Assembly: GCA_964626335.1 (NCBI GenBank)
Contig: CAZVFN010000001.1
Coordinates: forward strand, 11,482 to 75,481
Direction: 5' to 3'
DNA length: 64,000 bases
DNA from: an uncultured Ectothiorhodospiraceae bacterium
GTDB lineage: Bacteria > Pseudomonadota > Gammaproteobacteria > XJ16 > Halofilaceae
Shown here: positions 4,528 to 32,862 of the stretch, piece after piece
How the letters are laid out: each line of letters opens with the position of its first letter
How positions within the stretch are numbered: the stretch's first letter is position 1
Translations under genes and position numbers: made by a program
Notes under the pieces: model-generated
What the model saw: only the letters and a program-made list of their open reading frames with translations
What the model was told of the DNA's origin: nothing
The model's database searches: none

Positions 4528-5228
4528 CCCTGCTCGCGGCGGAGGCGATCCACGGCGGCTACGGCGGCGCCGACATCCTGCACGGGGTGTCGCTGCGTGT
4601 CGAGGCCGGCGAGATTGTGGTCGTCGTCGGCCCCAACGGTGCCGGCAAGTCGACCGCGATGAAGGCGCTTTTCGGGCTGGTCAACGTGCGCTCCGGGCGC
4701 GTGACGCTCGACGCCGAGGACATCAGCCGGCTCGCGCCGAACAAGATCGTCCGCCGCGGCATCTGCTACGTCCCGCAGGAGGCGAACGTGTTCCCGTCGC
4801 TGACGGTGCGCGAGAACCTCGAGATGGGCGCGTTCATTCGCCGCGACGACTTCCGCGCGCAGGCCGATCGGGTGTTCGAGCTGTTCCCCCCGCTCAAGGA
4901 GAAGCGCGGCCAGACGGCGGGCACGCTCTCGGGCGGTCAGCGCCAGATGGTCGCGATCGGCCGCGCGCTGATGCTCGAGCCGAAGGTGCTGCTGCTCGAC
5001 GAACCCACGGCCGGCCTGTCGCCGAGGTTCATCGAGCTGATCTTCGAGCGCGTTCGGGAGATCAACGCCGCCGGCGTGAGCATCCTCATGGTGGAGCAGA
5101 ACGCGCGCCAGGCGCTCCGCCTCGCCGACCGCGGCTACGTGCTGGTGCTCGGGGCCAATCGCCACGAGGACACCGGGGCCAACCTGCTTGCCGACCGCGA
5201 GGTCGCCGAGATGTTCCTGGGCGGATGA
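4524..5228 (+). CDS. livF: Branched-chain amino acid-type ABC transporter, ATP-binding protein (LivF family)
   Basis: GPNGAGKST, LSGGQRQMVAIGRAL, LLLDEP. The start overlaps the livG stop (ATGA). Confidence 0.85.
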   Translation: MTLLAAEAIHGGYGGADILHGVSLRVEAGEIVVVVGPNGAGKSTAMKALFGLVNVRSGRVTLDAEDISRLAPNKIVRRGICYVPQEANVFPSLTVRENLEMGAFIRRDDFRAQADRVFELFPPLKEKRGQTAGTLSGGQRQMVAIGRALMLEPKVLLLDEPTAGLSPRFIELIFERVREINAAGVSILMVEQNARQALRLADRGYVLVLGANRHEDTGANLLADREVAEMFLGG

Positions 5229-5237
5229 GGTGAGCCG

Positions 5238-6104
5238 ATGATCGATCTGCTGCAGCTCCTCATCTACGGCATCGTCCTCGGCAGCATCATCGCCCTGGGC
5301 GCGATCGGGGTCTCGCTGATCTTCGGCATCCTGCGCTTCGCGCATTTCGCGCACGGCGACCTGATGACCCTCGGTGCCTATTTCGCGCTGGCCGGTGTCG
5401 CGGGCATGGGCATGCCCATGTTCGCCGCCTTCGGCCTCGGCCTGGTCGCGACCGGCGCCGTCGCGGTGGTCATCGACCGCGCCCTCTACAGCCGCCTGCA
5501 GCGGGTCTCGCCCATCATCCTGCTGATCAGCTCGGTGGGTGTCGCGCTGATGCTGCGCAGCCTGATCCAGATGATCTGGGGGCCGGACAACGCCGTCTAC
5601 CAGGCCGGGATCTCGCAGCCGTGGGTCCTCGCCGGCGGGCTGCGCATCCAGCCGACCCAGGTCCTGATCATCGCGGGTGCGGCCACCCTGATGCTGGCGC
5701 TGCACCTGTTCCTGCAGCGGACACGCTTCGGCAAGGCCATGCGGGCGATGTCGGACAATCCCGACCTCGCGCGGCTGTCGGGCATCGACACCGACAAGGT
5801 GGTGATGCTGACCTGGGTCATCGCGGGCGTACTCGCGGCCGCGGCCGGCATCTTCCTCGGCATGGACACCCGGCTGCACCCGATCATGGGCTGGAAGCTG
5901 CTCCTGCCCGTGTTCGCCGCGGCGATCTTCGGCGGCATCGGCAAGCCGTACGGCGCGGTCGCCGGGGCACTGGTGATCGGGCTCGCGCAGGAGCTGTCGA
6001 CGCTGGTCATGCCGGCGGCCTACAAGCCGGCGGTGGCGTTCGCCCTCATGGTGATCATGCTCGTGTGGCGGCCCACGGGGCTGTTCAGCGGCAAGGTGCT
6101 TTGA
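5238..6104 (+). CDS. livH: ABC transporter permease (LivH family)
   Basis: 288-aa polytopic membrane protein with LivH-like ends (MIDLLQLLIYGIVLGSIIALGAIG ... VWRPTGLFG). Confidence 0.8.
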   Translation: MIDLLQLLIYGIVLGSIIALGAIGVSLIFGILRFAHFAHGDLMTLGAYFALAGVAGMGMPMFAAFGLGLVATGAVAVVIDRALYSRLQRVSPIILLISSVGVALMLRSLIQMIWGPDNAVYQAGISQPWVLAGGLRIQPTQVLIIAGAATLMLALHLFLQRTRFGKAMRAMSDNPDLARLSGIDTDKVVMLTWVIAGVLAAAAGIFLGMDTRLHPIMGWKLLLPVFAAAIFGGIGKPYGAVAGALVIGLAQELSTLVMPAAYKPAVAFALMVIMLVWRPTGLFSGKVL

Positions 6105-6106: not shown

Positions 6107-7081
6107 ATGGAACTCGCCGGGCTGCTCGGCTACTTCTTCTACTTCCTGTCGATGGCCACGATCTACGCCGTGCTCGCGCTCGGCCTGAACATCCAGTGGG
6201 GCTACACCGGCCAGCTCAACATCGGCGTGGCCGCGTTCTTCGCGGTGGGCGCCTACACCAGCGCCATCGCCACCAGCCCGGCCAGCGCGGACCACCTCGG
6301 GGGCTTCGCCCTGCCCTTCCTGGTCGGGCTGGTGCTGGCCATGGTCATCGCCGGCATTGTGGCCCTCGCGGTCGGGCTGATCACCCTCAACCTGCGCTCC
6401 GACTACCTGGCGATCGCCACCATCGGCATCGCCGAGATCGTGCGTCTGTTCCTCAAGAACGAGGCCTGGCTGACCAACGGGGTGCGCGGCATGTCGTCGA
6501 TCCCGGGGCCATTCGAGGGCATCGCGGGCGACGGCGAGGCCATGGCCTACCTGCTGGCGCTGCTGGCCCTGGCGGGGGGGGTGTACTGGACCTGCCAGCG
6601 GCTGTTCCGCTCGCCCTGGGCGCGCGTGCTGCGCGCCATCCGCGCGAACGAGGACGCGGTCCTGGCGGCGGGCAAGAACGTGCTGCGCTTCCGGGTCGAG
6701 GCGTTCGTGCTCGGCTCCATGTTCATGGGCCTCGGTGGGGCTCTCTACGCGCACTTCGTGGGCTTCATCAGCCCGGGTGCGTTCGACCCGATGTTCGCCA
6801 CGTTCGTCGTCTGGGTGATGCTGATCGCCGGCGGGAGCGGCAACAACCGCGGCGCCCTGCTGGGCGCCCTGGTCATCTGGGGGGTGTGGACCATGAGCGA
6901 GTCGATGGTCGGGGGCCTGATCGACATCGGCCTGCTGCCCGACCAGCTCAAGACCCAGGCCTCGGCGCTGCGCATCTTCGTGATCGGGCTGCTGCTGGAG
7001 ATCATCCTGCTGACGCGACCCCAGGGCCTGCTGCCGGAACGCCCGCCGCGGGCCATCGACCTGGCGCGCGAGCGCGACTGA
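6107..7081 (+). CDS. livM: ABC transporter permease (LivM family)
   Basis: In-frame tail of ORF 5621..7081. Start set at ATG 6107 (MELAGLLGYFFYFLS), 3 nt after the livH stop. Polytopic, with LNIQWGYTGQLNIG and SDYLAIATIG motifs. Confidence 0.8.
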   Translation: MELAGLLGYFFYFLSMATIYAVLALGLNIQWGYTGQLNIGVAAFFAVGAYTSAIATSPASADHLGGFALPFLVGLVLAMVIAGIVALAVGLITLNLRSDYLAIATIGIAEIVRLFLKNEAWLTNGVRGMSSIPGPFEGIAGDGEAMAYLLALLALAGGVYWTCQRLFRSPWARVLRAIRANEDAVLAAGKNVLRFRVEAFVLGSMFMGLGGALYAHFVGFISPGAFDPMFATFVVWVMLIAGGSGNNRGALLGALVIWGVWTMSESMVGGLIDIGLLPDQLKTQASALRIFVIGLLLEIILLTRPQGLLPERPPRAIDLARERD

Positions 7082-7217
7082 GCCCGGCCCGGTCGTCGCC
7101 CCGGCACCTCGGCACACCCCGGCCGCCCCGCTCCCCGGGACCACCCGGCGCCTCGCCCCCCGCCCCGGCATGCGAACGCGGCGGCACCTGCACGGCGAGA
7201 CCGCGGGGCGGCGCGGC

Positions 7218-8582
7218 TCAGAAGGCCGGCTGGATCGCCTTCATGCTCGCGCGCACCTTGTCCGGGGCGTGCCCGTACGGCGCGGCGAGCGCGTCGAACA
7301 GCCGATCGAGCTGGTCGTTCGCACGTTGCAGCGCATCGCCCTCGAGTGCGCCCTGCTGCGACAGCGTGTCGACCAGGCCCGCCAGCGCCATGGCGGCCTG
7401 GTCCGACCAGCCGCGGTCGGCGTAGCCGCTGGCCGCGCCGGCCGCCGCGATCCGCCGGGCGATGCCCTCGACCGCGGCCGTGTCGATCGGCGTGCCGGCG
7501 AGGCGCCGCTCCGCCTCGCGCGCCAGCGACAGCAGCCGCTCGGCGGCCTGTTCCACCGCCGGCACGCCGCTGCCCTGCGACCGGTGCAGCGCCTTCAACG
7601 CGTCGATCCAGCGGTTGCGCAGTTCCGGGGCGAGCTCGGCGAGCACATAGCCGAGCATGCGGAAGGTCGCGTCCTCGAACGGCACGGTGCCAGGCCCCTG
7701 GTCGACGATCGGGCGCGCGACCCAGCTCGTGTCGCCCAGTCCGTGGTGACAGCTGCGGCAATCGAAGTAGTACAGCTCGGGGAAGAGCCCGCCCCGCGCC
7801 AGGTCGTCGCGCACCTGCCGGACCTTGGTGCGCGCGGCCACGGCCTGCCCGATCGCCCAGGTCTCGGCGGCGGAGGCCGCCGTCTTGCGTTGCCGATAAT
7901 CGGCGTCGACGCGGTGATGCCGGGGCCGGATGCGGCTGAACGTGTCCGCCTCGAACAACAGCGACGGGTGGCCCGCGGCCATGATCCGGTGCGTCATGGG
8001 CGACGCCGGGTGGCTGTAGTGGCAGGACATGCACAGGCGCGTGCGCTCGACCGGTCGGTCCGTGGGATAGAGGCCATTCGCGACGTTGTCCGCGTGCGTC
8101 ACCCCGCTGTTGGTGTGCGTCTCGATCCAGTCCTCCGCTCCGCCGTGACAGGCCTCGCAGCCGACGCCGTCGCTCACCTGGAAGCGCCTGCCACGGCGCT
8201 CCTCGGGCACGTTGTCGGTGTGGCAATCCAGGCAGGTGTCGGCCGCCGTCGCGGCCCCCAGGCCCAGCCGATCCGCGATCCGCTGCGATTCATCCGTGCG
8301 CAGCACGGCGTAGGCCTTGGAGTGGGGATCCTTGCGGTGCCAGGTCAGGAACTCGTTCTGCAGCACGTCGGTACTGTCGGACGCCCGCCCGGCGCCGTGG
8401 CAGGTGCTGCCGGCGCAGGTGGCCACGCCGAGGTGCTTGCTGTCGCCGAGGCGCGGCAGGGGGGGATCGTCCTGCGCCGGCGCCATGCCGGCCACCCCCA
8501 GCAGCAGGGCCGCGCCGGCAGCTGCGCGCCGGCGCGCGAGCGGATTGCCTCGGTACACGGTCCTGCCGTAGTGTTGCCACAT
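7218..8582 (-). CDS. Secreted multihaem cytochrome c (five sites: one CX4CH and four CXXCH) with a haem-free helical C-terminal half
   Basis: GGAGAAGGAA lies upstream of ATG 8582. Signal-like N-terminus RRRAAAGAALLLGVAGMAPAQ. Haem sites CAGSTCH, CLDCH, CEACH, CMSCH, CRSCH. Divergent from the 8786 gene. Confidence 0.8.
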   Translation of the reverse strand: MWQHYGRTVYRGNPLARRRAAAGAALLLGVAGMAPAQDDPPLPRLGDSKHLGVATCAGSTCHGAGRASDSTDVLQNEFLTWHRKDPHSKAYAVLRTDESQRIADRLGLGAATAADTCLDCHTDNVPEERRGRRFQVSDGVGCEACHGGAEDWIETHTNSGVTHADNVANGLYPTDRPVERTRLCMSCHYSHPASPMTHRIMAAGHPSLLFEADTFSRIRPRHHRVDADYRQRKTAASAAETWAIGQAVAARTKVRQVRDDLARGGLFPELYYFDCRSCHHGLGDTSWVARPIVDQGPGTVPFEDATFRMLGYVLAELAPELRNRWIDALKALHRSQGSGVPAVEQAAERLLSLAREAERRLAGTPIDTAAVEGIARRIAAAGAASGYADRGWSDQAAMALAGLVDTLSQQGALEGDALQRANDQLDRLFDALAAPYGHAPDKVRASMKAIQPAF

Positions 8583-8785
8583 GGTGGGTTCCTTCTCCGG
8601 GGACTTCGCCGCAAGCTAAAGGGTCGGACCGGGTTCGAGCGTAGCGGCTCGCGGCGTTCTTTCCCAGTCCCCGGCGATCACATCGCGCCATGCGCGGTCG
8701 CCGATCGCCGGGTGATGCGGCCCGAACAAGGGGCCCGGCACTCCGCCGCCGCGCGGGTGTACCGGGTCGAGGGGGAACAATCGGC

Positions 8786-11218
8786 ATGGACCGTTACCCG
8801 GTTGCGATCGTGGGATCCGGCCCGGCCGGGCTGAGTGCAGCCTGCCGGGCCGCGGAGCGGGGCGTCGAGCACATCCTGCTCGAGGGTGCCGACCACTACG
8901 CCCACACGATCTACCGCTACCAGAAGGGCAAGCACGTGATGGCGGAGCCCAACGTGCTGCCGCTGCGCGCACCGATCCCGTTCGATGCCGGCCGGCGCGA
9001 GGAGATCCTCGAGGGCTGGGCATCCGGCGCCGGGGAGAAGGGCGCGAATACCCGCTTCAACGCCTCCGTCAAGGGCATCACGGGTGAGCGCGGCGACTTC
9101 CGCCTGACGCTCGCCGACGGCGCGGAGATCGCGGCCGAGCACGTCGTCCTGGCGATCGGCGTCCAGGGCAACCCGCGCACCCTGGGCCGCCCGGGCGAGG
9201 ACCTGCCCTTCGTCCAGTACCAGCTCGACGATCCCGGGGCCTACAGCGACGAGACGATCGTGGTCGTCGGCGCCGGCGATGCGGCGATCGAGAACGCGCT
9301 CGGCCTCGTCGAGCAGAACCGCGTGATCAGCGTCAATACGCGCGACGAGTTCACGCGCGCCAAGGACGCCAACAACCAGGCCATCCTGCAGGCGATCGAG
9401 AGTGAGTCGACGCCCATGGAGTGCTTCTACAACAGCACCGTGGACCGGGTCGATGCCCTCGAGGACGACAGCGGGTTCGCCGGCCAGATCACGCTCGACA
9501 CCGCCGAGGGCAAGGCCGAGATCAAGTGCCACCGGGTGATCGCCCGCATTGGCGCCATCCCTCCGCGCCGGTTCGTCGAGTCCTGCGGCGTCACGTTCCC
9601 CAACGACGACCCGAACTCCGTCCCGGAGGTCTCCAGCCAGTACGAGTCGAATGTCTCCGGGCTCTACATCATCGGCGCCCTCGCCGGCTATCCGCTGATC
9701 AAGCAGGCCATGAACCAGGGCTACGAGGTCGTCGAGTACATCCTCGGCCACGAAGTCGAGCCCGCCGACACGCCGCTGCTGCGCGACAAGTTCGCCGCCA
9801 TACCCGGTGGCGACGACGTCCCCGCGACGCTCGCACTGATCCAGGAGCGCGTGCCGATGCTCGCGCCGATCACGCAGCTGCAGCTGCGGGAGTTCCTGCT
9901 CGACAGCGACATCCACGCCCCCGCCGAGGGTGACACGATCTTCCGGTACAAGGACTACACCAACTCCATCTACTCGATCCTGCAGGGCGAGGTGCACGTC
10001 CACCCGGGCGATCCGAACGACCCGAAGACACCGCGCGCGGCGATCACTCTCACCCAGGGCCAGTTCTTCGGCGAGATGAGCCTGATCTCCGGGCGCCGGC
10101 GCTCGGCGACCGTGACCGCGGGCCGCGACTGCATCGTCATCGAGAGCTCGCGCCGGTCGCTGCTGACGCTGATGTACTCGGTCGAGGGCGTGCGCCGGGT
10201 GGTCGAGGAGTCCTTCCTGCTGCGCGCCATCCAGTCGCAGATCGCGCCCGGCTGCAGCGCCGAGGACCTGGGCGAGCTGGTGCGCACGGCGACGATCGAG
10301 AAGTACGCGGCCGGCGACGAGATCTTCCACGAGGGCGACGCCGGCGACTGCCTGCAGCTCATCCGCCGGGGCTCGGTGACGGTCTCGCGCCAGATCGGTG
10401 GGCGCGAGGTGGTGCTGGCGTACGTCCCGGCGGGCCAGTACGTCGGGGAGATGGCACTGGTCTCGGACGCGCCGCGTACGGCGACCGTGCGCGCCGCCGT
10501 CGCGACGGAGACGGTGCGCCTCGACGGCGACGCCTTCAAGCGCCTGCTCGAGGAGCACCCGGACGTGCGCAAGCGCGTCCAGCAGGTCTACAAGAACCGG
10601 CTGACCAGCGACATGGACCGCGGCCAGCAGCCCGAGGCCGGCGACATCATCTCGTTCCTGGTGGAGCAGGGCCTGGGCGAGGCCACCGACGTGCTGCTGA
10701 TCGACGAGTCGCTGTGCATCCGCTGCGATTACTGCGAGAGCGCCTGCGCCGATACCCACGGCGGTGTGTCGCGGCTCGACCGCGAGGCCGGCCCGACGTT
10801 CGCCCATGTGCACGTCCCGACCTCCTGCCGTCACTGCGAGCACCCGCACTGCATGAAGGACTGCCCGCCCGACGCGATCCACCGCAATCCCAACGGCGAG
10901 GTGTACATCGACGACACCTGCATCGGCTGTGGCAACTGCGAGAAGAACTGCCCCTACGGCGTGATCCAGATGGGCGTGGAGACCCGCCGCGAGCCCAGCC
11001 TGTGGGCGTGGCTGCTGACGGGGCTGGGCCCCGAGCCGGGCTCCGAGCTCAAGCCGAAGAAGAAGGAAAGCGACCAGAAGAAGGCGGTCAAGTGCGATAT
11101 GTGCAAGGATCTGCCGGGCGGCCCCGCCTGCGTGCGCGCCTGCCCGACCGGCGCGGCCCTGCGCATGAGCCCCGAGGCCTTCTTCGAGATGACGGAGAAC
11201 ACGTCGACGCGTGACTAG
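8786..11218 (+). CDS. Cytoplasmic fusion protein: FAD/NAD(P)-binding oxidoreductase, two cyclic-nucleotide-binding domains and a poly-ferredoxin (4Fe-4S) domain
   Basis: ORF 8690..11218. Start set at ATG 8786 (MDRYPVAIVGSGPAGLS), with GAGGGGGA upstream. Dinucleotide folds VAIVGSGPAG and IVVVGAGDAAIENA. cNMP cassettes FFGEMSLISGRRRSATV and YVGEMALVSDAPRTATV. Fe-S motifs CIRCDYCESAC, CRHCEHPHCMKDCP, CIGCGNCEKNCP, CDMCKD...CVRACP. Confidence 0.85.
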   Translation: MDRYPVAIVGSGPAGLSAACRAAERGVEHILLEGADHYAHTIYRYQKGKHVMAEPNVLPLRAPIPFDAGRREEILEGWASGAGEKGANTRFNASVKGITGERGDFRLTLADGAEIAAEHVVLAIGVQGNPRTLGRPGEDLPFVQYQLDDPGAYSDETIVVVGAGDAAIENALGLVEQNRVISVNTRDEFTRAKDANNQAILQAIESESTPMECFYNSTVDRVDALEDDSGFAGQITLDTAEGKAEIKCHRVIARIGAIPPRRFVESCGVTFPNDDPNSVPEVSSQYESNVSGLYIIGALAGYPLIKQAMNQGYEVVEYILGHEVEPADTPLLRDKFAAIPGGDDVPATLALIQERVPMLAPITQLQLREFLLDSDIHAPAEGDTIFRYKDYTNSIYSILQGEVHVHPGDPNDPKTPRAAITLTQGQFFGEMSLISGRRRSATVTAGRDCIVIESSRRSLLTLMYSVEGVRRVVEESFLLRAIQSQIAPGCSAEDLGELVRTATIEKYAAGDEIFHEGDAGDCLQLIRRGSVTVSRQIGGREVVLAYVPAGQYVGEMALVSDAPRTATVRAAVATETVRLDGDAFKRLLEEHPDVRKRVQQVYKNRLTSDMDRGQQPEAGDIISFLVEQGLGEATDVLLIDESLCIRCDYCESACADTHGGVSRLDREAGPTFAHVHVPTSCRHCEHPHCMKDCPPDAIHRNPNGEVYIDDTCIGCGNCEKNCPYGVIQMGVETRREPSLWAWLLTGLGPEPGSELKPKKKESDQKKAVKCDMCKDLPGGPACVRACPTGAALRMSPEAFFEMTENTSTRD

Positions 11219-11426: not shown

Positions 11427-12365
11427 ATGCACGCCTCGTTCCTGACCTACGAGCGCTTCCGCCACCTCAAGCTCGCCCTGGCGCTCGCGCTCGCGGCGAT
11501 CGTGGCCTATGCATGGCACGACCCGGTCGGCGAGCCCAACGGCGGCACCTGGCTCGGCTACACCCTGGGGGGACTCGGGGCGGCGCTGATCCTGCTGCTG
11601 CTGTGGTACGGCGTGCGCAAGCGCCGTTTCCGGTCGCGCATGGGCACCGTCCGCGGCTGGCTGTCGGCGCACGTCTACCTCGGGCTCGTGCTGGTGGTGA
11701 TCGCGACCCTGCACACCGGCTTCGAATTCGGCTGGAACATCCACACGCTCGCCTACGCGCTGATGATCGCGGTGATCGTCAGCGGCATCTACGGCGTCTA
11801 CGCCTACCGCCGCTATCCCAACCTGATGACGGGTAACCGCACCGGCGTCGGTCCCCAGGCGATGCTCGACGAGATCGGCTCGCTCGAGCAGCAGGCCGTC
11901 GAGCTCGCCGACAGCATCGACGACCCGACCCACCAGGTCGTACTGCGCTCGATCCGCAACAACACCATCGGCGGCGGCGTGCGCGACCAGCTGCGCGGCG
12001 GACGCCCGAAGCAGGCGCGCCAGGAGGAAGACCGCGCGGAGGAGTTCCTCGAACAGAAGAACAGGACGCTGGTCGCCGACCTGGAGAAGATCAAGGCGCA
12101 GGAAGCCGACCGCATCATGCGGGCCGAGTCGACCATGCAGTTCGTCGCCGGCCATCTGGCGGCGGCCGAGCCGGGCCAGCAGGTGGAGCGCATCCGCCGC
12201 CTCATGGATCTCCTGTCGCGGCGCCGCGCCCTGGTGCGCCGGCTCAACCAGGACATCCAGCACCGCGCGCTGCTCCAGATCTGGCTGTACCTGCACGTGC
12301 CGCTTTCGCTCGGGCTGCTGGCAGCCCTCGTGGCGCACGTCGTCGCCGTGTTCACCTACTGGTAG
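11427..12365 (+). CDS. Five-TM membrane protein with two H-x13-H helices (candidate di-haem b transmembrane electron carrier) and a long charged coiled-coil insert
   Basis: TM3 reads SAH-VYLGLVLVVIATL-H and the last TM reads LH-VPLSLGLLAALVA-H, each with exactly 13 residues between the histidines. About 150 aa of charged helical sequence separates TM4 from TM5. Weak SD. The stop is 6 nt before the next gene. Confidence 0.6.
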   Translation: MHASFLTYERFRHLKLALALALAAIVAYAWHDPVGEPNGGTWLGYTLGGLGAALILLLLWYGVRKRRFRSRMGTVRGWLSAHVYLGLVLVVIATLHTGFEFGWNIHTLAYALMIAVIVSGIYGVYAYRRYPNLMTGNRTGVGPQAMLDEIGSLEQQAVELADSIDDPTHQVVLRSIRNNTIGGGVRDQLRGGRPKQARQEEDRAEEFLEQKNRTLVADLEKIKAQEADRIMRAESTMQFVAGHLAAAEPGQQVERIRRLMDLLSRRRALVRRLNQDIQHRALLQIWLYLHVPLSLGLLAALVAHVVAVFTYW

Positions 12366-12371
12366 GCCGCC

Positions 12372-14132
12372 ATGCGCGTTCTCGTTCGCCACATTACGCG
12401 CAGGTCGCAGACCGGCCTCGGCCACACCGACAAGACGGTCGCGGGCGACAGCCTCACCATTGGTCGCGGCGCGGACGCGGATGTCTTCCTCTCCGACCTG
12501 CACGTCGCCCTGCACCACGCCGTGCTGCGGCGTGTGTCGAGCGGCAGGTTCAGCGTTCAGGCGCGCACGCCGAGTGGCATCAAGATCAATGGCCGCACGC
12601 TGCAGACCGGCATCGTGCGCGCCGGCGACCGCATCGGCGTCGGCCTCAGCACCCTGCGCCTCGAGCGCGGCGACCAGGAGCACGACGTCGTCCTCGAGGT
12701 CGACGAGGCGCGGACCCGTGGCGGCGAAAAGGCGGACTCCGGGCCGACGACGCTGCGCGCGGCCGGTCTCGGCCGCCGGCGCTGGGCCTGGGCCGCCTTC
12801 CTGGTGGTGCTGGCGATCGGCCTGGGCCTGCCGCTGGCCGAGATATTCGGCGAGCGCGATGGCCTCGCCCTCGACGGCGGCAGCGCCGACGCTGCGGCGC
12901 GCGACGGCGGCGGGATCACGCGACACGTCGACTGGCTGCTGGCGGGCAGCGACCGCATCTGGGAAACCGGGCCGATGAGCAAGCCCCACCGCTCCTTCGG
13001 CGCCGATTGCGGCCAGTGCCACCGGCAGCCGTTCCAGCGCGTGAGCGACGCTGCCTGCCTCGACTGCCACGAGAACCAGCCGCACCACGCCGACGACACC
13101 GGCCTGATGCGGAGCGCCGGGCTCTCCGCTCGGCGCTGCGCGAGCTGCCACGTCGAGCACAGCGGCACCGAGGCCCTGCGCGCCGCCGACGCCGACATCT
13201 GCTCCGACTGCCACTCGGCGCCCGAGAGCAACATGCCGGGCAGCGACCTGCAGGCGGTTTCCGGCTTCGCCGGCGACCGGCACCCGCAGTTCCGCGTGCG
13301 CCTGGTGTCGTTCAACGAGGGGGGCGAGCCCGCCTGGAAGCGCGTGCCCATGGACGGGCCCGTGAGCGAGCAAAGCGGGCTCGCATTCCCCCACGACGCC
13401 CATCTGGCCGCGGACGGCGTAGAGGGTCCACAGGGCAAGGAACAGCTCGCGTGCGGCGACTGCCATCGCCCCGGGCCGACGGGCGTGACGATGCAGCCGG
13501 TGCGTTTCGAGCGCGACTGCCAGCGCTGCCACCAGCTGAACTTCGAGCCCGAGGACCCGGACCGCCAGCTACCCCACGGCCGCCCCGGGCTGGTGGTGTC
13601 GATGCTCGAGGAGTACTACTCGCGGGTCGCGCTCGCGGGCGGCTTCGACCGCGCGGACGCCGAGGTCGACCCCCCGGACGTGGTCGAGCGCGAGCGCACC
13701 GCCTCGAGCGAGCTCGAGGAGGGCGGGCGGCGTGCCGCGCTCGCCTGGGCGCGGGAACAGGCCGGCGTGGTCGCCAGCGAGATGTTCGACTACCGCGCCT
13801 GCAGCACGTGCCACCAGGTCACGCGCACGCCCGATGACCCGGCCGGCTGGCGGGTGCACCCCGTGGCGCTGACGCAGCAGTGGTTCCCGCAGGCGGATTT
13901 CACGCACGCGCGCCACGAGCAGATGGCCTGCAACGACTGCCACGAGGCCGGCGGCTCCGAGGCGGCGAGCGACGTGCTGATGCCCGGGATCGCGACCTGC
14001 CAGGAATGCCACGGCGGTTCCGGGGCGAGCGACCGGATCGCTTCCGGCTGCGTCGATTGCCACGGCTTCCACACGGCGACCGATCTGCGGATGGGGGCGA
14101 ACGATGAGGGGATGGCCCATGCGCAGCGCTAG
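12372..14132 (+). CDS. FHA domain - single TM - periplasmic decahaem cytochrome c fusion
   Basis: N-terminal FHA-like sequence (LTIGRGADADVFLSDLHVALHHAVL...IKINGRTL...GDRIGVG). TM helix WAWAAFLVVLAIGLGLPLA. Ten CXXCH sites follow: CGQCH, CLDCH, CASCH, CSDCH, CGDCH, CQRCH, CSTCH, CNDCH, CQECH, CVDCH. Confidence 0.8.
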   Translation: MRVLVRHITRRSQTGLGHTDKTVAGDSLTIGRGADADVFLSDLHVALHHAVLRRVSSGRFSVQARTPSGIKINGRTLQTGIVRAGDRIGVGLSTLRLERGDQEHDVVLEVDEARTRGGEKADSGPTTLRAAGLGRRRWAWAAFLVVLAIGLGLPLAEIFGERDGLALDGGSADAAARDGGGITRHVDWLLAGSDRIWETGPMSKPHRSFGADCGQCHRQPFQRVSDAACLDCHENQPHHADDTGLMRSAGLSARRCASCHVEHSGTEALRAADADICSDCHSAPESNMPGSDLQAVSGFAGDRHPQFRVRLVSFNEGGEPAWKRVPMDGPVSEQSGLAFPHDAHLAADGVEGPQGKEQLACGDCHRPGPTGVTMQPVRFERDCQRCHQLNFEPEDPDRQLPHGRPGLVVSMLEEYYSRVALAGGFDRADAEVDPPDVVERERTASSELEEGGRRAALAWAREQAGVVASEMFDYRACSTCHQVTRTPDDPAGWRVHPVALTQQWFPQADFTHARHEQMACNDCHEAGGSEAASDVLMPGIATCQECHGGSGASDRIASGCVDCHGFHTATDLRMGANDEGMAHAQR

Positions 14133-16182
14133 CCGGCTACTGCTCGCGACTGCCTGCCTGGCCGGCCTGCTCGCCGCCTGCGGCGGCGGCTCGCGCAGCG
14201 GCGGCTCCGATGCCGGCTCGAGCCAGGACACCGACTGCACCGGCTTTTGCCAGGACGCCGCGACCCGGCTCACGGCGAGCGATGTGCGCACCGTGATCGC
14301 CCAGGCGGCCGCAGAGGCGGACGCCCGCGGCGAGCCCGCGACCATCGCCGTCGTCGATCGCGTCGGCAACGTCCTGGGCCTGTTCCGCATGAACGGGGCC
14401 GACGCCAGCGTCGAGATCACGTCCACGCCCGGCCAGAGCGACGGCGTCGACGGGGGCCTGGAGGGCGTCAACATCATCCCCGACACGCTGGCGGCGATCG
14501 CCAAGGCCGTGACCGGGGCCTACCTCTCGTCCGAGGGCCATGCGTTCACCACCCGCACGGCGAGCCAGATCGTGCAGGCCCACTTCAACCCGGGCGAGGA
14601 CTTCCAGCCCGGGGGCCCGCTGTTCGGCGTGCAGTTCAGCCAGCTGCCCTGCTCGGACCTGGCGACCCGCTTCGACGGCGCCGACCCGATCAATGCCGGT
14701 CCCCACCGCTCGCCGCTGGGCCTGTCCGCCGACGCGGGCGGCCTGCCGCTGTACAAGAACGGCACCCCCGTCGGCGGGATCGGCGTGATCGCCGACGACG
14801 TCTACGGCCTGTCGCCGAAGGAGCTGGGCGGCGACCAGCCAACGAGCGTCGACGAGCTCGCGGCGGTCGCCGGCAGTGCCGGCTTCGCCGCGCCCGCCGC
14901 CCGGCGCGGCAACCGCATCACGGTCGAGGGCAAGCTGCTGCGCTTCGCGGCGGCGCAGCCGGGCGACCTGCGAACGGAGGCGTCGAACGCCCCCGCCTTC
15001 GCCAGCCTGGCCGGCACGACCGCGGCGGTGCCCGGCTACACCGATGGCACGATCCGCGGCGGCACGGCCTTCTCCAAGCCGGAATCGGGCATCCGCGCGA
15101 GTACCCACGCGGCCTTCAGCGGCCAGGACGCATTCGTGCTCGTTGACGATGCCGACAACCCGCGGTTCCCGCCCACGGCGGGCAGCGCCCCCGGCGGCGG
15201 CAACGCGCTCACGCAGAACGAGGTGGAGACGCTCCTCTCGGAGGCCCTCGCGGTCGCCAACCGGAGCCGTGCGCAGATCCGCCGCCCGCTCGGCAGCCGG
15301 GCCCGCGTCACGGTTTCCGTGGTCGACACCGACGGCAATGTCCTCGGCATCGTGCGCGGCCGCGACGCGCCCGTGTTCGGCATCGACGTCTCGCTGCAGA
15401 AGGCCCGGACGGCCGCGTTCTTCTCCGGCAGCGACGCGGCCACCGAGCTGCGGGCCGTGCCCGACGCCGAGTATCTCGACGGCGGCCTGTCGAGCCTGCG
15501 CAACGAGCCGATCAGCCATTACATCGACGGCGACCCGGGCGACGAGCGCCAGACGGGCGTGCGCGCCTTCCTCGGCGAGCCCAGCGCCCTCACCGGCGGT
15601 GTTGCCTTCGCCGACCGCTCCGGCGGCAACCTGTCGCGGCCGTTCTTCCCCGACGGCATCGACGGCAACCGCCACGGGCCCTTCAGCAAGCCGGGCGGCA
15701 TCGAGCCGCCCACGGAGTGGAGCCCGTTCTCCGTGGGCCTGCAGCTCGACCTGGTCTACAACGCCCTGATCCGCCACGTCGGCTTCATCGCCGGAGTGGC
15801 CGGCAGCGACGTGCCGATGAACTGCACGGGCATCCGCGGCCTGACCAACTCCGGTGGTGCCGGCCCCCTGACCCAGGCCGACACGATCGACACGGTGCGC
15901 AACGGCATCCAGATCTTCCCCGGCAGCGTGCCGATCTACCGCGGCAGCACGCTGGTCGGCGGCATCGGCGTCTCCGGCGACGGCATCGAACAGGACGACC
16001 TGATCGCGTTCCTGGGGCTGCACAACGCGGGCGAGAAGCTGGGCACGATCGACAATGCGCCGACGGCGATTCGGGCCGACAAGCTGAGTCCGGTCGACTT
16101 CGGCGTGAATTTGCGCTACGTGCAGTGCCCGCAGAAACCGTTCCTCGACAGCGATGAGCAGACCGTCTGTGAAGGCAAGTAA
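14119..16182 (+). CDS. Lipoprotein with two GlcG/HbpS-like (DUF336, haem-binding-type) domains
   Basis: ORF 14104..16182. Preferred start is ATG 14119 (MRSASRLLLATACLAGLLAAC, lipobox LAAC). DUF336-like segments ATIAVVDRVGNVLGLFRM, VTVSVVDTDGNVLGIVRGRDAPVFGIDVSLQKARTAAFF and PIYRGSTLVGGIGVSGDGIEQDDLIA. The start overlaps the upstream stop. Confidence 0.6.
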   Translation: MRSASRLLLATACLAGLLAACGGGSRSGGSDAGSSQDTDCTGFCQDAATRLTASDVRTVIAQAAAEADARGEPATIAVVDRVGNVLGLFRMNGADASVEITSTPGQSDGVDGGLEGVNIIPDTLAAIAKAVTGAYLSSEGHAFTTRTASQIVQAHFNPGEDFQPGGPLFGVQFSQLPCSDLATRFDGADPINAGPHRSPLGLSADAGGLPLYKNGTPVGGIGVIADDVYGLSPKELGGDQPTSVDELAAVAGSAGFAAPAARRGNRITVEGKLLRFAAAQPGDLRTEASNAPAFASLAGTTAAVPGYTDGTIRGGTAFSKPESGIRASTHAAFSGQDAFVLVDDADNPRFPPTAGSAPGGGNALTQNEVETLLSEALAVANRSRAQIRRPLGSRARVTVSVVDTDGNVLGIVRGRDAPVFGIDVSLQKARTAAFFSGSDAATELRAVPDAEYLDGGLSSLRNEPISHYIDGDPGDERQTGVRAFLGEPSALTGGVAFADRSGGNLSRPFFPDGIDGNRHGPFSKPGGIEPPTEWSPFSVGLQLDLVYNALIRHVGFIAGVAGSDVPMNCTGIRGLTNSGGAGPLTQADTIDTVRNGIQIFPGSVPIYRGSTLVGGIGVSGDGIEQDDLIAFLGLHNAGEKLGTIDNAPTAIRADKLSPVDFGVNLRYVQCPQKPFLDSDEQTVCEGK

Positions 16183-18034
16183 GCGCACAGTCATCGGCCT
16201 TGGCCTCGCCGCCGTCGTCCTCGCGCCGTTCGCCGCGGCCGCGGACGACGTCCGGCGCCGCCCGGGCAGCGACCGCGACCGGGTCATCGAGCGCGAGATC
16301 CCGGGCGAGCGCGACCGCGAGCGCCCGGGCAGCGATCGCCCCCGGGAGCGCGACAAGGTCGAGCAATCCCCCGATCGAGCGCAGCAGCCGCGCGAGCAGC
16401 CCGACCCCAACAGGGCCGCCGGGATCGGGCGCGTCGAGCCGGCTTCGGCGCCGGACGAGCCCGGGCGCTTGACCCTGCCCGTGCCCGATCGGTGGCGTAT
16501 CGTCAATTCGCTCGGGCTGATCGATCAGCGCTGGTGGGACCCCTACGATCAGAACACGTACAAGGCGGACAAGCCGATCCACGACGACTGGTTCCTCAAC
16601 GTCGACTTCACCTCGGACACCGTCGTCGAGCCCAGGCAGTTCCCCGTCCCCGTCTCCCCGCAGGGCACGGCACGCAGCAACGAGCTCGACCTGGTCGGCA
16701 ACGGCGAGCAGATGGTCTACGCCCAGACCTTCATCGCCGGTCTCGTCTACTACAAGGGCAACACCGTATTCAAGCCGCCCGACTGGGAATACCGGCTGAC
16801 GCTGGCCGGCCAGTACAACCACGTCGAGTCCGAGCAGGCGCGCCTGCTGCGGGCGGACCCGGACCGCGGTACCGACCGCTCCGACCAGCACCTCGGCGTC
16901 CAGGAGCTGTTCGTCGACAAGCACCTCAGAGATGTCTCGCCGCGCTATGACTTCGACTCGGTGCGCTTCGGCATCCAGCCGTTCAACGCCGATTTCCGCG
17001 GCTTCCTGTTCCAGGACGAGCCCTTCGGGGTACGCCTGTTCGGCACGCGCGACAACAACATCTTCCAGTACAACCTGGCCTGGTTCCGCCGCATCGAGAA
17101 GGACACCAACAGCGGCCTCAACGACCTCGCCGAGGGCCTGCGCGACGACGACGTCTTCGTCGCCAACCTGTTCTGGCAGGACTTCCCCGTGCTCGGCTTC
17201 GACAGCCAGGCCACGATCCTGCACAACCGCAATGAGGAAGGCGACGAGAGCGCGCACTTCAACCAGAACAACTTCATCGAGCGCCCGGCCTCCATCGGCC
17301 TGGAGAAGCCGCGCAACTACGACGTGACGTATGTCGGCCTCTCGGGCGACGGCCACTTCGGACGCACGAACTTCACCGGATCGGTGTATTACGCCCATGG
17401 CGAGCAGGACCGCGGCGTCTTCGTCGAGGAGCCCACCGACATCCGCGCCGGCTTCGCCGCCGGCGAGCTCTCCTGGGACTTCGACTGGACGCGCCTGCGC
17501 GTCTCCGGCCTCTATGCCAGCGGCGACGACGACCCGTTCGACGACGTCTCCAACGGCTTCGACGCCGTGTTCGAGAACCCGCTGTTCGCGGGCGCCGACA
17601 CCAGCTTCTGGATCCGCCAGCCCGTGCCGCTGATCGGCGGCGGTCGGGTCGCGCTGTCCGGCCGCAACGGGATACTCAACTCGCTGCGCAGCTCCAAGGA
17701 GGAAGGCCAGTCCAACTTCGACAATCCGGGCACCGTCCTGCTCGGCATCGGCACCGACCACGACGTCACGCCGCAGCTGCGTGTCTCGACCAACGTCAAC
17801 CAGCTGTGGTTCGACACGACCGAGACCGTGGAGGTCGCGCGCCAGCAGACGAACGTCGATGACGAGATCGGCACCGACATATCGGTCTCGGCAATCTACC
17901 GGCCGCTGTTCACGCAGAACATCGTCTTCCGCGGGTCGGCCGCCGTTCTCGAGCCGGGTGATGGCTACGAGCAACTGTTTGGCACCGACGACGAGGCCTA
18001 CTCCGTGCTCTTCAACCTGGTGTTGCGGTACTGA
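16154..18034 (+). CDS. Outer-membrane beta-barrel protein (porin-like) with an N-terminal Arg/Asp/Glu/Pro-rich repeat
   Basis: Signal peptide KRTVIGLGLAAVVLAPFAAAA. Repeat RPGSDRDR...RPGSDRPRERD. Long run of alternating beta-strand-like sequence. The C-terminus, ...VLFNLVLRY, ends in an aromatic residue. Overlaps the upstream gene by 29 nt and the downstream gene by 1 nt. Confidence 0.65.
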   Translation: MSRPSVKASKRTVIGLGLAAVVLAPFAAAADDVRRRPGSDRDRVIEREIPGERDRERPGSDRPRERDKVEQSPDRAQQPREQPDPNRAAGIGRVEPASAPDEPGRLTLPVPDRWRIVNSLGLIDQRWWDPYDQNTYKADKPIHDDWFLNVDFTSDTVVEPRQFPVPVSPQGTARSNELDLVGNGEQMVYAQTFIAGLVYYKGNTVFKPPDWEYRLTLAGQYNHVESEQARLLRADPDRGTDRSDQHLGVQELFVDKHLRDVSPRYDFDSVRFGIQPFNADFRGFLFQDEPFGVRLFGTRDNNIFQYNLAWFRRIEKDTNSGLNDLAEGLRDDDVFVANLFWQDFPVLGFDSQATILHNRNEEGDESAHFNQNNFIERPASIGLEKPRNYDVTYVGLSGDGHFGRTNFTGSVYYAHGEQDRGVFVEEPTDIRAGFAAGELSWDFDWTRLRVSGLYASGDDDPFDDVSNGFDAVFENPLFAGADTSFWIRQPVPLIGGGRVALSGRNGILNSLRSSKEEGQSNFDNPGTVLLGIGTDHDVTPQLRVSTNVNQLWFDTTETVEVARQQTNVDDEIGTDISVSAIYRPLFTQNIVFRGSAAVLEPGDGYEQLFGTDDEAYSVLFNLVLRY

Positions 18035-21000
18035 TGACAGCGCAAGCGAACCGAAACACGCCGATGAGCGAACCCGTCGCCCCCGGGCGCACGCCGAATC
18101 GCGCCCGGGCGTGGCTCCACGCCGGTGCCCTCGTGCTCGCGGCGACGCTGGCCTGGGGACCCGGCGACCGCGCGCAGGCGGCCTCCGCGCTCGGCGAGCC
18201 GCAGGACGTCGATTACGACCCCGCCCCGCCCGCGCCGAAGAACCAGCTGCCGGGCCAGGCCGAGGACAAGAGCGACGGCTGCCAGTCGTGCCACACCGAG
18301 ACCGACCAGAAGGACATGCACGACAACCCGGCGGTCGTTCTCGGCTGTACCGACTGCCACGGCGGCGATCACGACGTCATGCGCCCGGCCGACAGCGAAC
18401 AGGGCGATCCCGCCTACCAGAACGCGATGAAGGAAGCGCACGTCAAGCCGCTGTACCCGGGGGCGTGGAATTGGCCGAACAGCGCGACGCCGAAACGCAC
18501 GTACACGCTGCTGAACGAGGAATCGCCGGAATTCGTCCGCTTCGTGAACCCGGGCGACTACCGCGTCGCGGAGAAGGCGTGCGGCAACTGCCACGGCGAC
18601 ATCGTCGCCGCCGCCCAGCGCAGCCTGATGGCGACCTCGGCGATGTTCTGGGGCGGGGCGGCGTACAACAACGGCATCCTGCCCAACAAGCGCTACATCC
18701 TGGGCGAGGCCTACACCGACGAGGGCAAGCCCGCCAGGATCGAGAACCCGGTCGAGGTCACGGAGCCGATGAAGCGCGCCGGTGTCCGCCCCGAGCTGTG
18801 GCCCCTGCCCGCCTGGGAGACCGTGCCGCCGGCCGACGTCTTCCGCGTGTTCGAGCGTGGCGGGCGCAACAAGGAGAACCTGTTCCCCGAGACCGGCCTG
18901 CCGAACCCCGAATTCGACATCCAGGTGCTCGAGGAGCCGGGCCGCCCGGACATCCGCCAGTCGAACCGGGGCCCGGGCACCGGGCAGCGGATCGCCGTGC
19001 CGGTGCTCAACATGACCAAGACGCGGCTGAACGACCCGACCATGTGGTTCATGGGCACCAACGACAACCCGGGCGACTTCCGCTCCTCGGGCTGCTCGTC
19101 GTGCCACGTCGTCTACGCCAACGACCGCAAGGAAAAGTCCGCCGGCCAGTACGCCGAGCACGGCCACTGGGGCAAGAGCATCACCGCGGACCCGACCATC
19201 CCGAAGGATGAGAAGGGCCACCCCCTCGAACACAAGTTCACCGAGCAGATCCCGACCAGCCAGTGCATGATCTGCCACATGCACCAGCCGAATTCGTTCG
19301 TGAACTCGTTCCTCGGCTACACCATGTGGGACTACGAGTCCGATGCACCGCGCATGTGGCCCGAGGAGCAGCAATACCCGAGCTCCGAGGAGCAGCGCCG
19401 GATCAACGCCCGCAACCCCGAGGGCGCGGCCGTGCGCGGCAAGTGGGGCGACGTCGACTTCCTCTCCGGCGTATCGGAGCTGAACGACCAAATGGAGCAC
19501 ACGCAGTTCGCCGACTACCACGGCCACGGCTGGAACTTCCGCGCCGTGTTCAAGAAAGACCGCGAGGGCAAGCTGCTCGACGCGAAGGGCGACGTGGTGT
19601 CCCACGACGACCCGGAGAAGTTCGACAAGGCCGTGCACATGTCGTCGATCCACGCCGACAAGGGCATGCACTGCGTCGACTGCCACTACAGCCAGGACAC
19701 GCACGGCAACGGCCACATCTACGGTGAGGTCGCGCAGGCCATCGAGATCGAGTGCTCCGACTGCCACGGCACTGCCGAGCGCTACCCGGACCTGCTGACC
19801 AGCGGCCCGGCCGCGCCGCCGGGCGGGCGCGACATGTCGACGATGCGCACGCCCGACGGTCGCCAGCGCTTCGTCTGGCGTAACGGCGACCTGTACCAGC
19901 GCTCGCAAATGGACCCCGAAAAGGAGTGGCAGGTCAGCCTGGTCAAGGACACGGTGACGCAGGGCAGCGGCAGCTACAACGAGCGCGCCGCACGCTCCAA
20001 GCTGATGTCGTCGGACGAGCACAAGCAGGACTGGGGCCGAGACGTGGCGAAGGAGAACCGCGCGCACAAGGAATCGGAGATGATGTGCACCACCTGCCAC
20101 ACGTCCTGGACGACGAGCTGCGCGGGCTGCCATCTGCCGATCGAGGCGAACTGGAAGACCAAGCGCCATCACTACGAAGGCGGGGCCACGCGCAACTTCG
20201 CCACCTACAACCCCCAGGTGGTGCGCGACCAGATGTTCCAGCTGGGCCTGCACGGGCCCGCCAAGGGCAACCGCGTCGCACCGGTGCGCTCGTCCTCTGC
20301 GCTGGTGCTGTCGTCGCGCGACGCCGAGCGCGGGCTGATCTACACCCAGCAGCCGCCGATCTCGTCGGCCGGTTTCTCGTCGCAGGCGTTCGCGCCTCAC
20401 TTCGCGCACACCGTGCGCAAGACCGAGACGAAGTCGTGCGAGGACTGCCATCTCTCCGAGGAAGGCGACAACAACGCGATCATGTCGCAGTTGTTGCTCC
20501 AGGGGACCGATTTCGTCGATTTCGTCGGCTACAACGCCTGGGTCGGCGAGGCCGGCGGCCTGTCCGCCGTGCGCGTCAGCGAGTGGGAGGAGCCGCAGGC
20601 CGTGATCGGCAGCTACCTCCACGAGTACGCCTACCCCGACTGGTATGCGCAGCACAACAAGCGCGATCGCCAGCTGGACCAGGCCTATGACCACGGTGCC
20701 GGCGGCGAGGTCGGCTGCCTGCAACTGCGCGGCGAGTATGTCTACGCCGCCGAAGGGCCCGGGGGCTTCCAGGTCTACGACGCACAGGCGATCGGCAACA
20801 AGAACTTCTCGCAGCGCCTGATCACGCAGCCGTTCTCGCCGCTGGGCCACGACACCCAGGTCGACACGAGGAACGCGACCTGCGTCGCCCTGCCGACCAC
20901 CCAGCCGATCCACCCGGACCGCAATCAGGGCGAGCTGATGCGCGAGACCAACATGGAGCAGCCGTTCCACCCGGTCTACGACTACGCGGGCATCACCGAC

Positions 21001-22017: not shown

Positions 22018-22146
22018 GCGCCTGTCCGAGAGATTCGCGCCGTCGCGAGCGCGTGGGACCAGCGAGCAGGTTTTGGCGATCGTGAAACGAGCATGGTGGT
22101 TCCCATGTGCGTCGAGCGCTCGCCGAAAGATGCTGCTGGGGCACGC
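22012..22146 (+). mobile_element. Diverged, right-end-degraded copy of MITE-like element B (paralogue of 39501..39677)
   Basis: By eye it aligns with 39505..39636 at roughly four-fifths identity (CTAGGCGCCTGTCCG...GCCGTCGCGAGCGCGTGG...GATCGTGAAACGAGCATGG...GTCGAGCGCTC...GATGCTGCTGGGGCACG). Element A sits exactly at its left CTAG. Confidence 0.5.
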
Positions 22147-23063: not shown

Positions 23064-23065
23064 CC

Positions 23066-27998: not shown

Positions 27999-28000
27999 GG

Positions 28001-32855: not shown

Positions 32856-32862
32856 CCCCGCC

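Follow-up and report, generated by a model that had tools for sequence, protein, structure and literature searches.

Among the trans-envelope electron conduits described in proteobacteria, the closest to the system considered here is PCC4 Subgroup II, in which a gene for a PF13247 Fe-S protein lies upstream of a membrane-protein gene, together with genes for 10-, 5- and 4-haem cytochromes and a porin (He et al. 2017, PMC5566968). The inner-membrane protein of PCC3 and PCC4, with ~300 aa, five transmembrane (TM) helices, an SGXXG motif and two WX3HX13H motifs, has been read as a di-haem-b, ferric-reductase-like relay (PMC5566968). That paper makes no mention of a forkhead-associated (FHA) domain, and PCC4 itself was hypothesised from genomes rather than from experiments (PMC5566968). 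A 'Forkhead-associated protein' with 10 CXXCH motifs, cluster 403, was later listed in 27 Gallionellaceae genomes (PMC9900912, Table 1; 2023), while the nonahaem cytochrome 'NHC' of Ferrigenium straubiae was presented as a previously unreported FHA-multihaem fusion, for which a CymA/NrfH-like quinone link was proposed and the FHA domain left unexplained (2026 preprint, bioRxiv 10.64898/2026.01.22.701106). Here we describe a 64,000-nucleotide stretch of contig CAZVFN010000001.1 from an uncultured Ectothiorhodospiraceae bacterium (hereafter the window), which encodes an FHA domain fused through one TM helix to a decahaem c-type cytochrome. A first-pass annotation had recognised this fusion and had proposed that its FHA domain reads phosphothreonine (pThr). 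Our analysis bears out the fusion; the FHA domain does not appear to be a canonical pThr reader and is more likely a docking piece.

The window shares with PCC4 Subgroup II a Fe-S gene followed by a 5-TM protein with SGXXG and two WX3HX13H motifs and then by a 10-haem cytochrome, the presence of c554-like 4-haem cytochromes nearby, and a distribution in Alpha- and Gammaproteobacteria. Furthermore, two related loci, L052 and L070, carry exactly the published composition of this subgroup. Because the motifs of the 5-TM protein, the PF13247 gene order and the composition of L052 and L070 all match, the FHA-decahaem family can be equated with the PCC4 decahaem. The window differs from PCC4 in its outer module, where an HbpS-like lipoprotein, a 626-aa porin-like protein and a 1273-aa ten-CXXCH/LVIVD protein stand in place of the 4-haem and 5-haem cytochromes and the porin. 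Compared with the published haem set, it has the 10-haem and the 4-haem c554-like genes and no 5-haem gene, and its porin rests on a faint match. The window carries the commoner PCC4 variant, with a different outer module. A PCC3 identity was ruled out, as PCC3 cytochromes possess 21-34+ haems and low-complexity repeats (PMC5566968). NHC, compared by description only, resembles the window protein in its cytosolic FHA domain, single TM helix, periplasmic multihaem domain and adjacent 5-TM and [4Fe-4S] genes; it differs in having nine haems, in lying next to nirK and an SHP-like gene, and in that no outer-membrane module is described for it.

The reading frame of the cytochrome opens at 12366, right behind the TAG of the upstream gene, and its first ATG is at 12372. 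Over 140 proteins in the database, 550-600 aa in length, align to it from Met1, with 97-100% coverage and 29-74% identity, so that the start codon does not lie downstream of the FHA region, a possibility which the first-pass annotation had raised against its own reading. The product has a single hydrophobic segment (aa 141-159, Kyte-Doolittle hydropathy 2.28) and no N-terminal signal peptide, and the flanks of the segment are asymmetric, with five K/R and one D/E on the N-terminal side and two K/R and five D/E on the C-terminal side. These positive-inside flanks, the single segment and the absence of a signal peptide place the FHA domain in the cytoplasm and the haem domain in the periplasm by prediction. 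Between the FHA domain and the TM helix lies a linker, whose residues 117-128 fall below 50 in predicted local distance difference test (pLDDT) in an AlphaFold2 (AF2) model built on 86 homologues (mean pLDDT 86), and which is followed by R136, invariant among homologues. The family conserves the features first annotated: the fusion itself, its N-in topology and its decahaem domain in the periplasm. None of the three findings that the first-pass annotation had listed against itself (a failed FHA profile, a periplasmic FHA domain, a start codon downstream of it) was made.

The earlier count of ten CXXCH sites behind one hydrophobic helix was confirmed, with motifs starting at aa 213, 229, 256, 277, 361, 383, 477, 520, 543 and 560. 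All ten, together with ten further histidines (the distal candidates H206, 239, 263, 304, 341, 344, 402, 512, 515 and 567), are invariant in the 86 homologues, which fits ten bis-His haems; haem loading is itself predicted. The Pfam profiles Cytochrome_C7 (55.3 bits) and Cytochrom_c3_2 (42.3 bits) match this domain. In NapC/NirT/CymA/NrfH quinol dehydrogenases a tetrahaem domain (PF03264) comes straight after the N-terminal TM helix; the cytochrome has no PF03264 match in Pfam, and its first haem motif lies ~50 aa beyond the TM helix. A PDB sequence search with the haem domain returned nothing useful.

At the level of fold, the assignment of the N-terminal domain to the FHA family is firm. PF00498 matches aa 29-91 with 30.9 bits against a cutoff of 20.7, which upholds the first-pass assignment, and the same domain is precomputed for most of the 120 homologues listed. 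Residues 1-112 are modelled as an 11-strand β-sandwich with a pLDDT of 96-98, and the top 50 Foldseek matches in the PDB are all FHA domains, GarA/OdhI being the best (E 6.5e-7). GarA/OdhI is also the best match by sequence (E 2e-4), with Rv0020c and Rv1747 as further close matches. The residues kept are G31, R32, H49, A50, N73-G74, G85 and G91, and the window domain and GarA/OdhI have the GR, H-A, NG and GD-x-I-x-I-G signature in common.

The ligand site presents a different picture. Binding of pThr by FHA domains rests on an Arg in the β3-β4 loop and a Ser in the β4-β5 loop (bioRxiv 10.1101/2020.09.22.308627); Rad53 FHA1 uses Arg70 and Ser85 here, helped by Asn86 and Thr106 (PMC2615620). In order to place these positions in the cytochrome, the residue register against GarA/OdhI was derived with phmmer, hmmalign and MAFFT, which all agree. 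The G-R of GarA/OdhI is kept as G31-R32; V-S-R-R-H-A corresponds to V45-A46-L47-H48-H49-A50, with Ser replaced by Ala and Arg by Leu; S-L-N-G-T corresponds to T66-P67-S68-G69-I70, with Asn replaced by Ser; and Y-V-N corresponds to I72-N73, which belongs to a second, structural NG. The 'SxxH' (S41-D-L-H44) and 'NG' (N73-G74) on which the pThr proposal had drawn are therefore off-register, the canonical Ser aligning to A46 and the peptide-binding Asn to S68. GarA/OdhI is thus unlike the window domain in retaining the canonical Ser-Arg and S-L-N-G-T, and also in being soluble. GarA also binds unphosphorylated enzymes, via its apical face.

The same pattern holds across the family. Among the 86 aligned sequences, 52 have Ala and six have Ser where the canonical Ser would be, and of 135 FHA domains drawn from genome and metagenome loci only 7 (5%) have Ser there; in the window protein the residue that follows is Leu (L47), versus the usual Arg or Asn. 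Asn is found at its canonical position (S68; Rad53 N107) in 3/86. The position of R32, on the other hand, holds Arg in 70/86 and in 128/135 (95%), and the Gly of 'GR' is present in 100% of the 135. From the Arg-Ser pair that defines pThr binding only the Arg is kept, with the Ser, and also the Asn, gone, and the claim of a pThr reader is not supported at this level. On these residues, the FHA domain of the decahaem cytochrome would not be a canonical pThr reader and is more likely to serve in docking.

A search for the same architecture in other genomes, by one peptide-pattern scan built on 24 closer sequences, recovered relatives in the genomes of at least 207 GTDB species. Gammaproteobacteria make up most of them; some belong to the Alphaproteobacteria, including the closest, a Rhodovibrio metagenome-assembled genome (MAG) at 74% identity, and one is a Verrucomicrobiia MAG. 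Carriers include Woeseiaceae, Alcanivoracaceae, Lysobacterales, Methylococcales, Nitrosomonas and Rhodovibrio-like bacteria, along with many metagenome contigs. The gene order Fe-S flavoprotein, 5-TM protein, FHA-decahaem cytochrome occurs in 80-82 of 82 genome loci, with the 5-TM protein gene in 82/82 and the Fe-S flavoprotein gene upstream of it in 80/82. The outer genes are less constant (HbpS-like in 69/82, porin-like in 67/82, the large LVIVD cytochrome in 59/82). In L052, L066, L070, L071 and L078, of Paracoccaceae/Thermohalobaculum type, the core is not accompanied by the HbpS-like, porin-like and LVIVD genes, which identifies core and outer module as separable units; in L052 and L070 the FHA-decahaem gene is followed by genes for c554-like 4-haem and 5-haem cytochromes and for a 512-aa protein without Pfam match.

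Three relatives (P0091, P0107 and P0112) lack the FHA domain and start ~25 residues before the TM helix, at loci with the 5-TM protein gene and without the Fe-S flavoprotein gene; P0103 and P0087 had also looked FHA-less and were dismissed because their genes had been called in split or truncated form. Scanning metagenomes with the three proteins as seeds added 80 further loci, and co-occurrence was scored only where at least 4.8 kb of upstream DNA was available. FHA domain and Fe-S flavoprotein gene occur together in 75 loci plus one frameshifted locus (L005), the FHA domain alone in 18 and neither in 17; the Fe-S flavoprotein gene with an FHA-less cytochrome occurs in none. The association is strong (Fisher p = 1e-10), for loci that are not phylogenetically independent. 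The single apparent 'FHA-less with Fe-S' locus proved to be the frameshifted L005, and L121 and L125, at first counted as FHA-less and placed by the haem-domain tree away from the main FHA-less block, were left unscored as their contigs end <300 nt upstream of the haem domain. An apparent absence of the Fe-S flavoprotein gene from L002 was likewise discarded: the gene is present there in fragments. On this 3.5-Mb contig it lies at 6506-9100 in ~11 frame fragments that together cover the whole profile, the result of either a long-read assembly error or a pseudogene.

A neighbour-joining tree of the haem domain gathers all loci without the Fe-S flavoprotein gene into one clade that has no member with it, and the FHA-less proteins are nested inside this clade, so that the flavoprotein gene was likely lost first and the FHA domain later. 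In the 18 loci that keep the FHA domain without the flavoprotein gene, H49, A50 and N73 are already eroding, while R32 is kept in 18/18. Such an order of loss would be expected if the main task of the FHA domain were to hold the flavoprotein, and it is directional evidence rather than proof. Two observations are new here: wherever the Fe-S flavoprotein gene was scored, the FHA domain was present too (76:0), and FHA-less cytochromes are nested in the clade without the flavoprotein gene. They also bear on the partner of the FHA domain, which the first-pass annotation had called unknown: a co-encoded partner is now more likely, as the Fe-S flavoprotein gene precedes the cytochrome gene in 76/76 loci that carry it, and only where an FHA domain is present.

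The Fe-S flavoprotein, whose sequence matches in the PDB are Bdr, PKA-R and HycB and whose Fer4_11 domain (PF13247) is detected at E 1e-10, has no TM segment or signal peptide and is hence assigned to the cytoplasm; its true start may be M33, at 8786. The 5-TM protein carries W78x3H82x13H96 in TM3, S119-G-x-x-G123 in TM4 and W286x3H290x13H304 in TM5, the four His, the Trp and the SGxxG showing no or almost no variation among 88-92 sequences. Only TM2-TM5 emerge from hydropathy; TM1 (aa 15-31) and the motifs were read from the sequence. These features make the protein a putative di-haem-b transmembrane relay. From its stop codon to the ATG of the cytochrome there are 6 nt, and the same junction measures a few nt in L001, L002, L083, L085 and L086.

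A precedent for an FHA domain that docks without phosphate exists. SctD has an FHA domain devoid of the pThr residues, through which it docks SctK with no need for phosphate (bioRxiv 10.1101/2020.09.22.308627). SctD (YscD/PrgH/MxiG/PscD) and GltG of the Myxococcus gliding machinery share with the cytochrome an FHA-TM-periplasmic layout in a trans-envelope machine. Indeed, the best non-FHA profile matches on aa 21-102 are Yop-YscD_cpl (31.9 bits, below its cutoff of 33.2) and the NCBIfam model GltG (23 bits). SctD differs in the periplasm, where it has ring-building motifs instead of a haem domain, and no secretion genes were found near the cytochrome gene.

We propose that the cytochrome is the inner-membrane-anchored decahaem of a PCC4-type electron conduit. 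Electrons would pass, in one direction or the other, between cytoplasmic NAD(P)(H), FAD and [4Fe-4S] centres, the haem-b pair in the 5-TM protein, the periplasmic decahaem domain and the outer-membrane module; Ccm haem-attachment genes are present in the window. In its logic this pathway resembles a split NOX/ferric reductase, or the Tmc/Hmc complexes, coupled to a porin-cytochrome module. The FHA domain, held ~22 residues from the membrane, would dock a cytoplasmic module independently of phosphate, most probably the Fe-S flavoprotein, much as the SctD/YscD FHA domain joins the type III secretion system's inner-membrane ring to its cytoplasmic platform. Arg32 would probably contact an acidic group on the partner, and the two cyclic nucleoside monophosphate (cNMP)-binding domains of the flavoprotein suggest second-messenger control of electron input. 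That the FHA domain is a phospho-independent docking or assembly module in a cytoplasm-to-outer-membrane conduit is, on the sequence evidence gathered here, an even call, and the reading we favour.

Several points weigh against this proposal. The FHA domains of SctD have lost the Arg too, whereas the cytochrome family keeps it; this conservation, and the best matches to pThr-binding GarA/OdhI, may allow weak or non-canonical phospho-binding. The association between FHA domain and flavoprotein gene rests on essentially one loss event. Furthermore, 18 loci retain the FHA domain with no adjacent flavoprotein gene, and the persistence of R32 in all of them implies that another or an additional ligand is possible, for example the insert of the 5-TM protein. 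Haem b binding by the 5-TM protein is putative, and we infer the porin identity of the 626-aa protein from its faint match.

A bolder form of the proposal, which we put forward tentatively and consider doubtful, is a cyclic-nucleotide-gated, NOX-like wire made of the Fe-S flavoprotein, the 5-TM protein and the FHA-decahaem cytochrome, which would link cytoplasmic NAD(P)(H) to periplasmic and outer-membrane cytochromes and bypass the quinone pool, the FHA domain acting as a clamp or switch that brings in the cytoplasmic input module through contact of Arg32 with an acidic or phosphorylated residue. The Desulfovibrio Tmc and Hmc complexes, Geobacter CbcL and the NOX/FRE ferric-reductase domain resemble the window system in combining periplasmic c3-type multihaem cytochromes, a membrane di-haem b and a cytoplasmic Fe-S/flavin logic. 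The ferric-reductase domain likewise has HX13H pairs, as in the 5-TM protein, and faint NCBIfam matches to TmcA and QrcA were seen. These systems differ in that there is no significant homology between subunits; to our knowledge, none has FHA or cNMP-binding domains or shares an operon with an outer-membrane module.

A true pThr reader, with a Hanks-type kinase and a PP2C phosphatase encoded elsewhere controlling assembly or gating, or coupling redox state to phosphosignalling, is in our view unlikely. The above-threshold PF00498 match, the closeness to pThr-binding GarA/OdhI, Rv0020c and Rv1747, and the 95% conservation of the phosphate-contacting Arg speak for it; the Ala and Leu in place of the β4-β5 Ser and its neighbour, with Ser in ~5% of the family, and the missing canonical Asn speak against. 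In agreement with the first-pass annotation, no Ser/Thr kinase or PP2C was found in the window, either by Pfam in 37 of its open reading frames (ORFs), outside a few stretches (1-1800, 60600-63200), or by phmmer with two kinases and one PP2C as queries. These queries were taken from related loci and were run over ~168 family loci, of which three have a kinase (L002, L033, L086) and two a PP2C (L002, L032) within 10 kb. Such linkage, at ~2%, is about what chance adjacency would give, an estimate rather than a computed value, and together with the loss of most pThr residues it leaves kinase control unsupported. The L002 and L086 instances would favour a reader, yet L002, which has a kinase nearby, encodes a cytochrome (P0113) that lacks even the Arg; P0113 and the L086 cytochrome both belong to a 'GS' branch whose FHA domain is without Arg as well. 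No Ser/Thr is conserved in the cytoplasmic insert of the 5-TM protein (the product of the gene at 11427), a candidate target in the first-pass annotation, across the aligned homologues. In L002, whose phospho-signalling genes lie at 20722-21716 and 32-1720, a PP2C and a tandem-FHA protein directly follow the cluster; in L086 a Pkinase domain fused to CsgG/LpoB/PEGA-like domains (3217-5253, minus strand) is divergent from the Fe-S flavoprotein gene, and in L033 a Pkinase gene (654-2474) lies near the cluster.

The FHA domain may instead bind the 120-160-aa insert of the 5-TM protein or mediate homo-oligomerisation of the cytochrome, the correlation with the flavoprotein gene then being a by-product of shared ancestry; we hold this improbable. 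In its favour, no neighbour other than the 5-TM protein is universal (82/82 genome loci, plus every metagenome locus whose upstream DNA is long enough), translational coupling is suggested by the gene junction, and the FHA domain with its R32 persists in the 18 loci without an adjacent flavoprotein gene. Within the insert, G182, G183, L189 and D276 are conserved in FHA-bearing loci and differ in FHA-less ones, a comparison that involves only four closely related FHA-less sequences and is too thin to use. However, the FHA-less clade keeps a 5-TM protein whose insert is equally long (median 137 aa), which argues that the insert is independent of the FHA domain, and this alternative leaves unexplained why the flavoprotein gene never accompanies an FHA-less cytochrome. 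That the FHA domain is a relic with little or no function, or serves as a cytoplasmic 'plug' to fix the N-in topology of the signal-anchor helix, would suit the loss of most canonical ligand residues and the whole clade that has shed the domain and kept the rest of the cluster, but is very unlikely given the retention of the FHA signature and of the Arg (95%) across proteins 30-35% identical overall, the very confident AF2 fold and the loss of the domain only in the clade without the flavoprotein gene.

The coordinates of the cytochrome, its parts and the genes around it are collected in Table 1.

Table 1. Features of the FHA-decahaem cytochrome, its gene cluster and the Mtr-type cluster in the window (positions as numbered in the 64,000-nucleotide window).
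Feature	Position	Strand	Basis
FHA-TM-decahaem c-type cytochrome gene, 586 aa	12372..14132	+	ORF; Pfam FHA and Cytochrome_C7/c3/Paired_CXXCH; >140 full-length homologues
Cytoplasmic FHA-fold domain, aa 1-112	12372..12707	+	PF00498, AF2, Foldseek, residue register
Acidic/Gly-rich linker, aa 113-134, ending in basic GLGRRRW stop-transfer flank	12708..12773	+	Low pLDDT, flank charges
Single TM helix, aa 135-164, core 141-159, N-in/C-out	12774..12863	+	Hydropathy, flanks, AF2 helix
Periplasmic decahaem domain, aa 195-567	12954..14072	+	CXXCH motifs, invariant His; pLDDT mostly >90
c554-like cytochrome, 4 CXXCH and 1 CX4CH, signal peptide	7218..8615	-	Pfam Cytochrome_C554, motif count; divergent
Fe-S flavoprotein: YpdA/TrxB/Bdr-like FAD/NAD(P)H, two cNMP-binding and HycB-like poly-[4Fe-4S] domains	8690..11218	+	Pfam, NCBIfam
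5-TM inner-membrane protein, 312 aa, cytoplasmic insert of ~155 aa	11427..12365	+	Weak Ni_hydr_CYTB match, invariant residues
Lipoprotein with three HbpS/GlcG-like stretches, 692 aa	14104..16182	+	Pfam HbpS-like x3, lipobox-like LLAAC
Signal-peptide protein, 626 aa, candidate outer-membrane β-barrel/porin	16154..18034	+	Faint NCBIfam DESULF_POR1 match, E 0.002
Ten-CXXCH (N-terminal 800 aa) and C-terminal LVIVD β-propeller protein, 1273 aa	18034..21855	+	Pfam LVIVD, 66.9 bits
MtrB/PioB porin	42036-44243	-	Pfam E 1e-150
MtrA-like decahaem cytochrome	44216-45301	-	
MtrC/OmcA-like cytochrome	45302-48232	-	
cbb3-type mono-haem cytochrome c	48063-48752	+	
NapC/NirT CymA-like tetrahaem cytochrome	48820-49476	+	

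The genes of the cluster are tightly packed, which is consistent with one operon. With its first ATG as start, the lipoprotein ORF shares 29 nt with the 3' end of the cytochrome gene (14104-14132); the lipoprotein and porin-like genes likewise have 29 nt in common (16154-16182), and the ATG of the LVIVD-protein gene overlaps the stop codon of the porin-like gene by 1 nt. The genes for the membrane protein and the FHA-cytochrome share one reading frame, with only TAG and GCC GCC between them (12363-12374). In the Rhodovibrio MAG (L006 1437-3260, P0051) a single 565-aa 'FHA domain-containing protein' has been annotated for the membrane protein and the FHA domain, and a 340-aa 'cytochrome c3 family protein' (P0017) for the remainder of the cytochrome. 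As an FHA domain fused in this manner would sit on the wrong side of the membrane, the fusion is probably an assembly or frameshift artefact.

The 1273-aa LVIVD protein is the best-conserved product of the cluster, at 58-68% identity across loci (those at >40% identity), and the FHA-cytochrome shows 31-39% over the same loci. No sequence relative of the LVIVD protein was found in the PDB. The c554-like cytochrome probably starts at the ATG at 8582, and a homologue of its gene flanks the cluster in L001, L002, L083, L085, L086 and L088.

Elsewhere in the window, a second, classical porin-cytochrome conduit lies at 42036-49476; as this Mtr-type cluster shares the window with the PCC4-type cluster, two different envelope conduits are encoded within 40 kb. 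Ccm genes are found in two blocks (22107-23734 and 49569-55807): ccmA and ccmB directly downstream of the PCC4-type cluster, and ccmC, ccmF and genes for a CcmG-like redoxin and CcmH/CycH beside the Mtr cluster. Between the two cytochrome clusters lies a NiFe hydrogenase region (24269-37945), with the large subunit at 24269-26008, the small subunit at 28001-29230, an HdrD-like CCG/Fe-S protein at 26005-27342 and the HypA/B/D/F/E maturation genes; H2 could serve as an electron source for both conduits. The window further encodes three cNMP-binding proteins, namely a stand-alone CNB protein (39804-40298, minus strand), a Crp-like regulator (40796-41746, plus strand) and the Fe-S flavoprotein itself (aa 380-640), which hints at cyclic-nucleotide control of electron-transfer genes.

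The window cytochrome belongs to a widespread family already noticed in the literature, and the core of its cluster was described as PCC4 in 2017. What is added here is the residue-level case against the pThr reading, an account of how large and how invariant the three-gene core is, the co-occurrence of FHA domain and Fe-S flavoprotein gene with its order of loss, and the existence of two outer modules. The residue analysis and the co-occurrence pattern make the literature's vague remark on a 'regulatory domain' specific, as a matter of pThr binding versus flavoprotein docking. We know of no other multihaem cytochrome family with a cytoplasmic signalling-type domain. Beyond Shewanella and Geobacter, little is understood of the way in which electrons pass through the inner membrane during extracellular electron transfer and metal oxidation. 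If the FHA domain indeed recruits a cNMP-binding NAD(P)H/Fe-S module, the cluster would provide a regulated, quinone-independent link from cytoplasmic reducing power to the cell surface, of relevance to iron and manganese cycling and to bioelectrochemistry. Should the cNMP-gated, NOX-like wire also hold true, the family would represent a new class of trans-envelope conduit under second-messenger control in hundreds of proteobacterial species.

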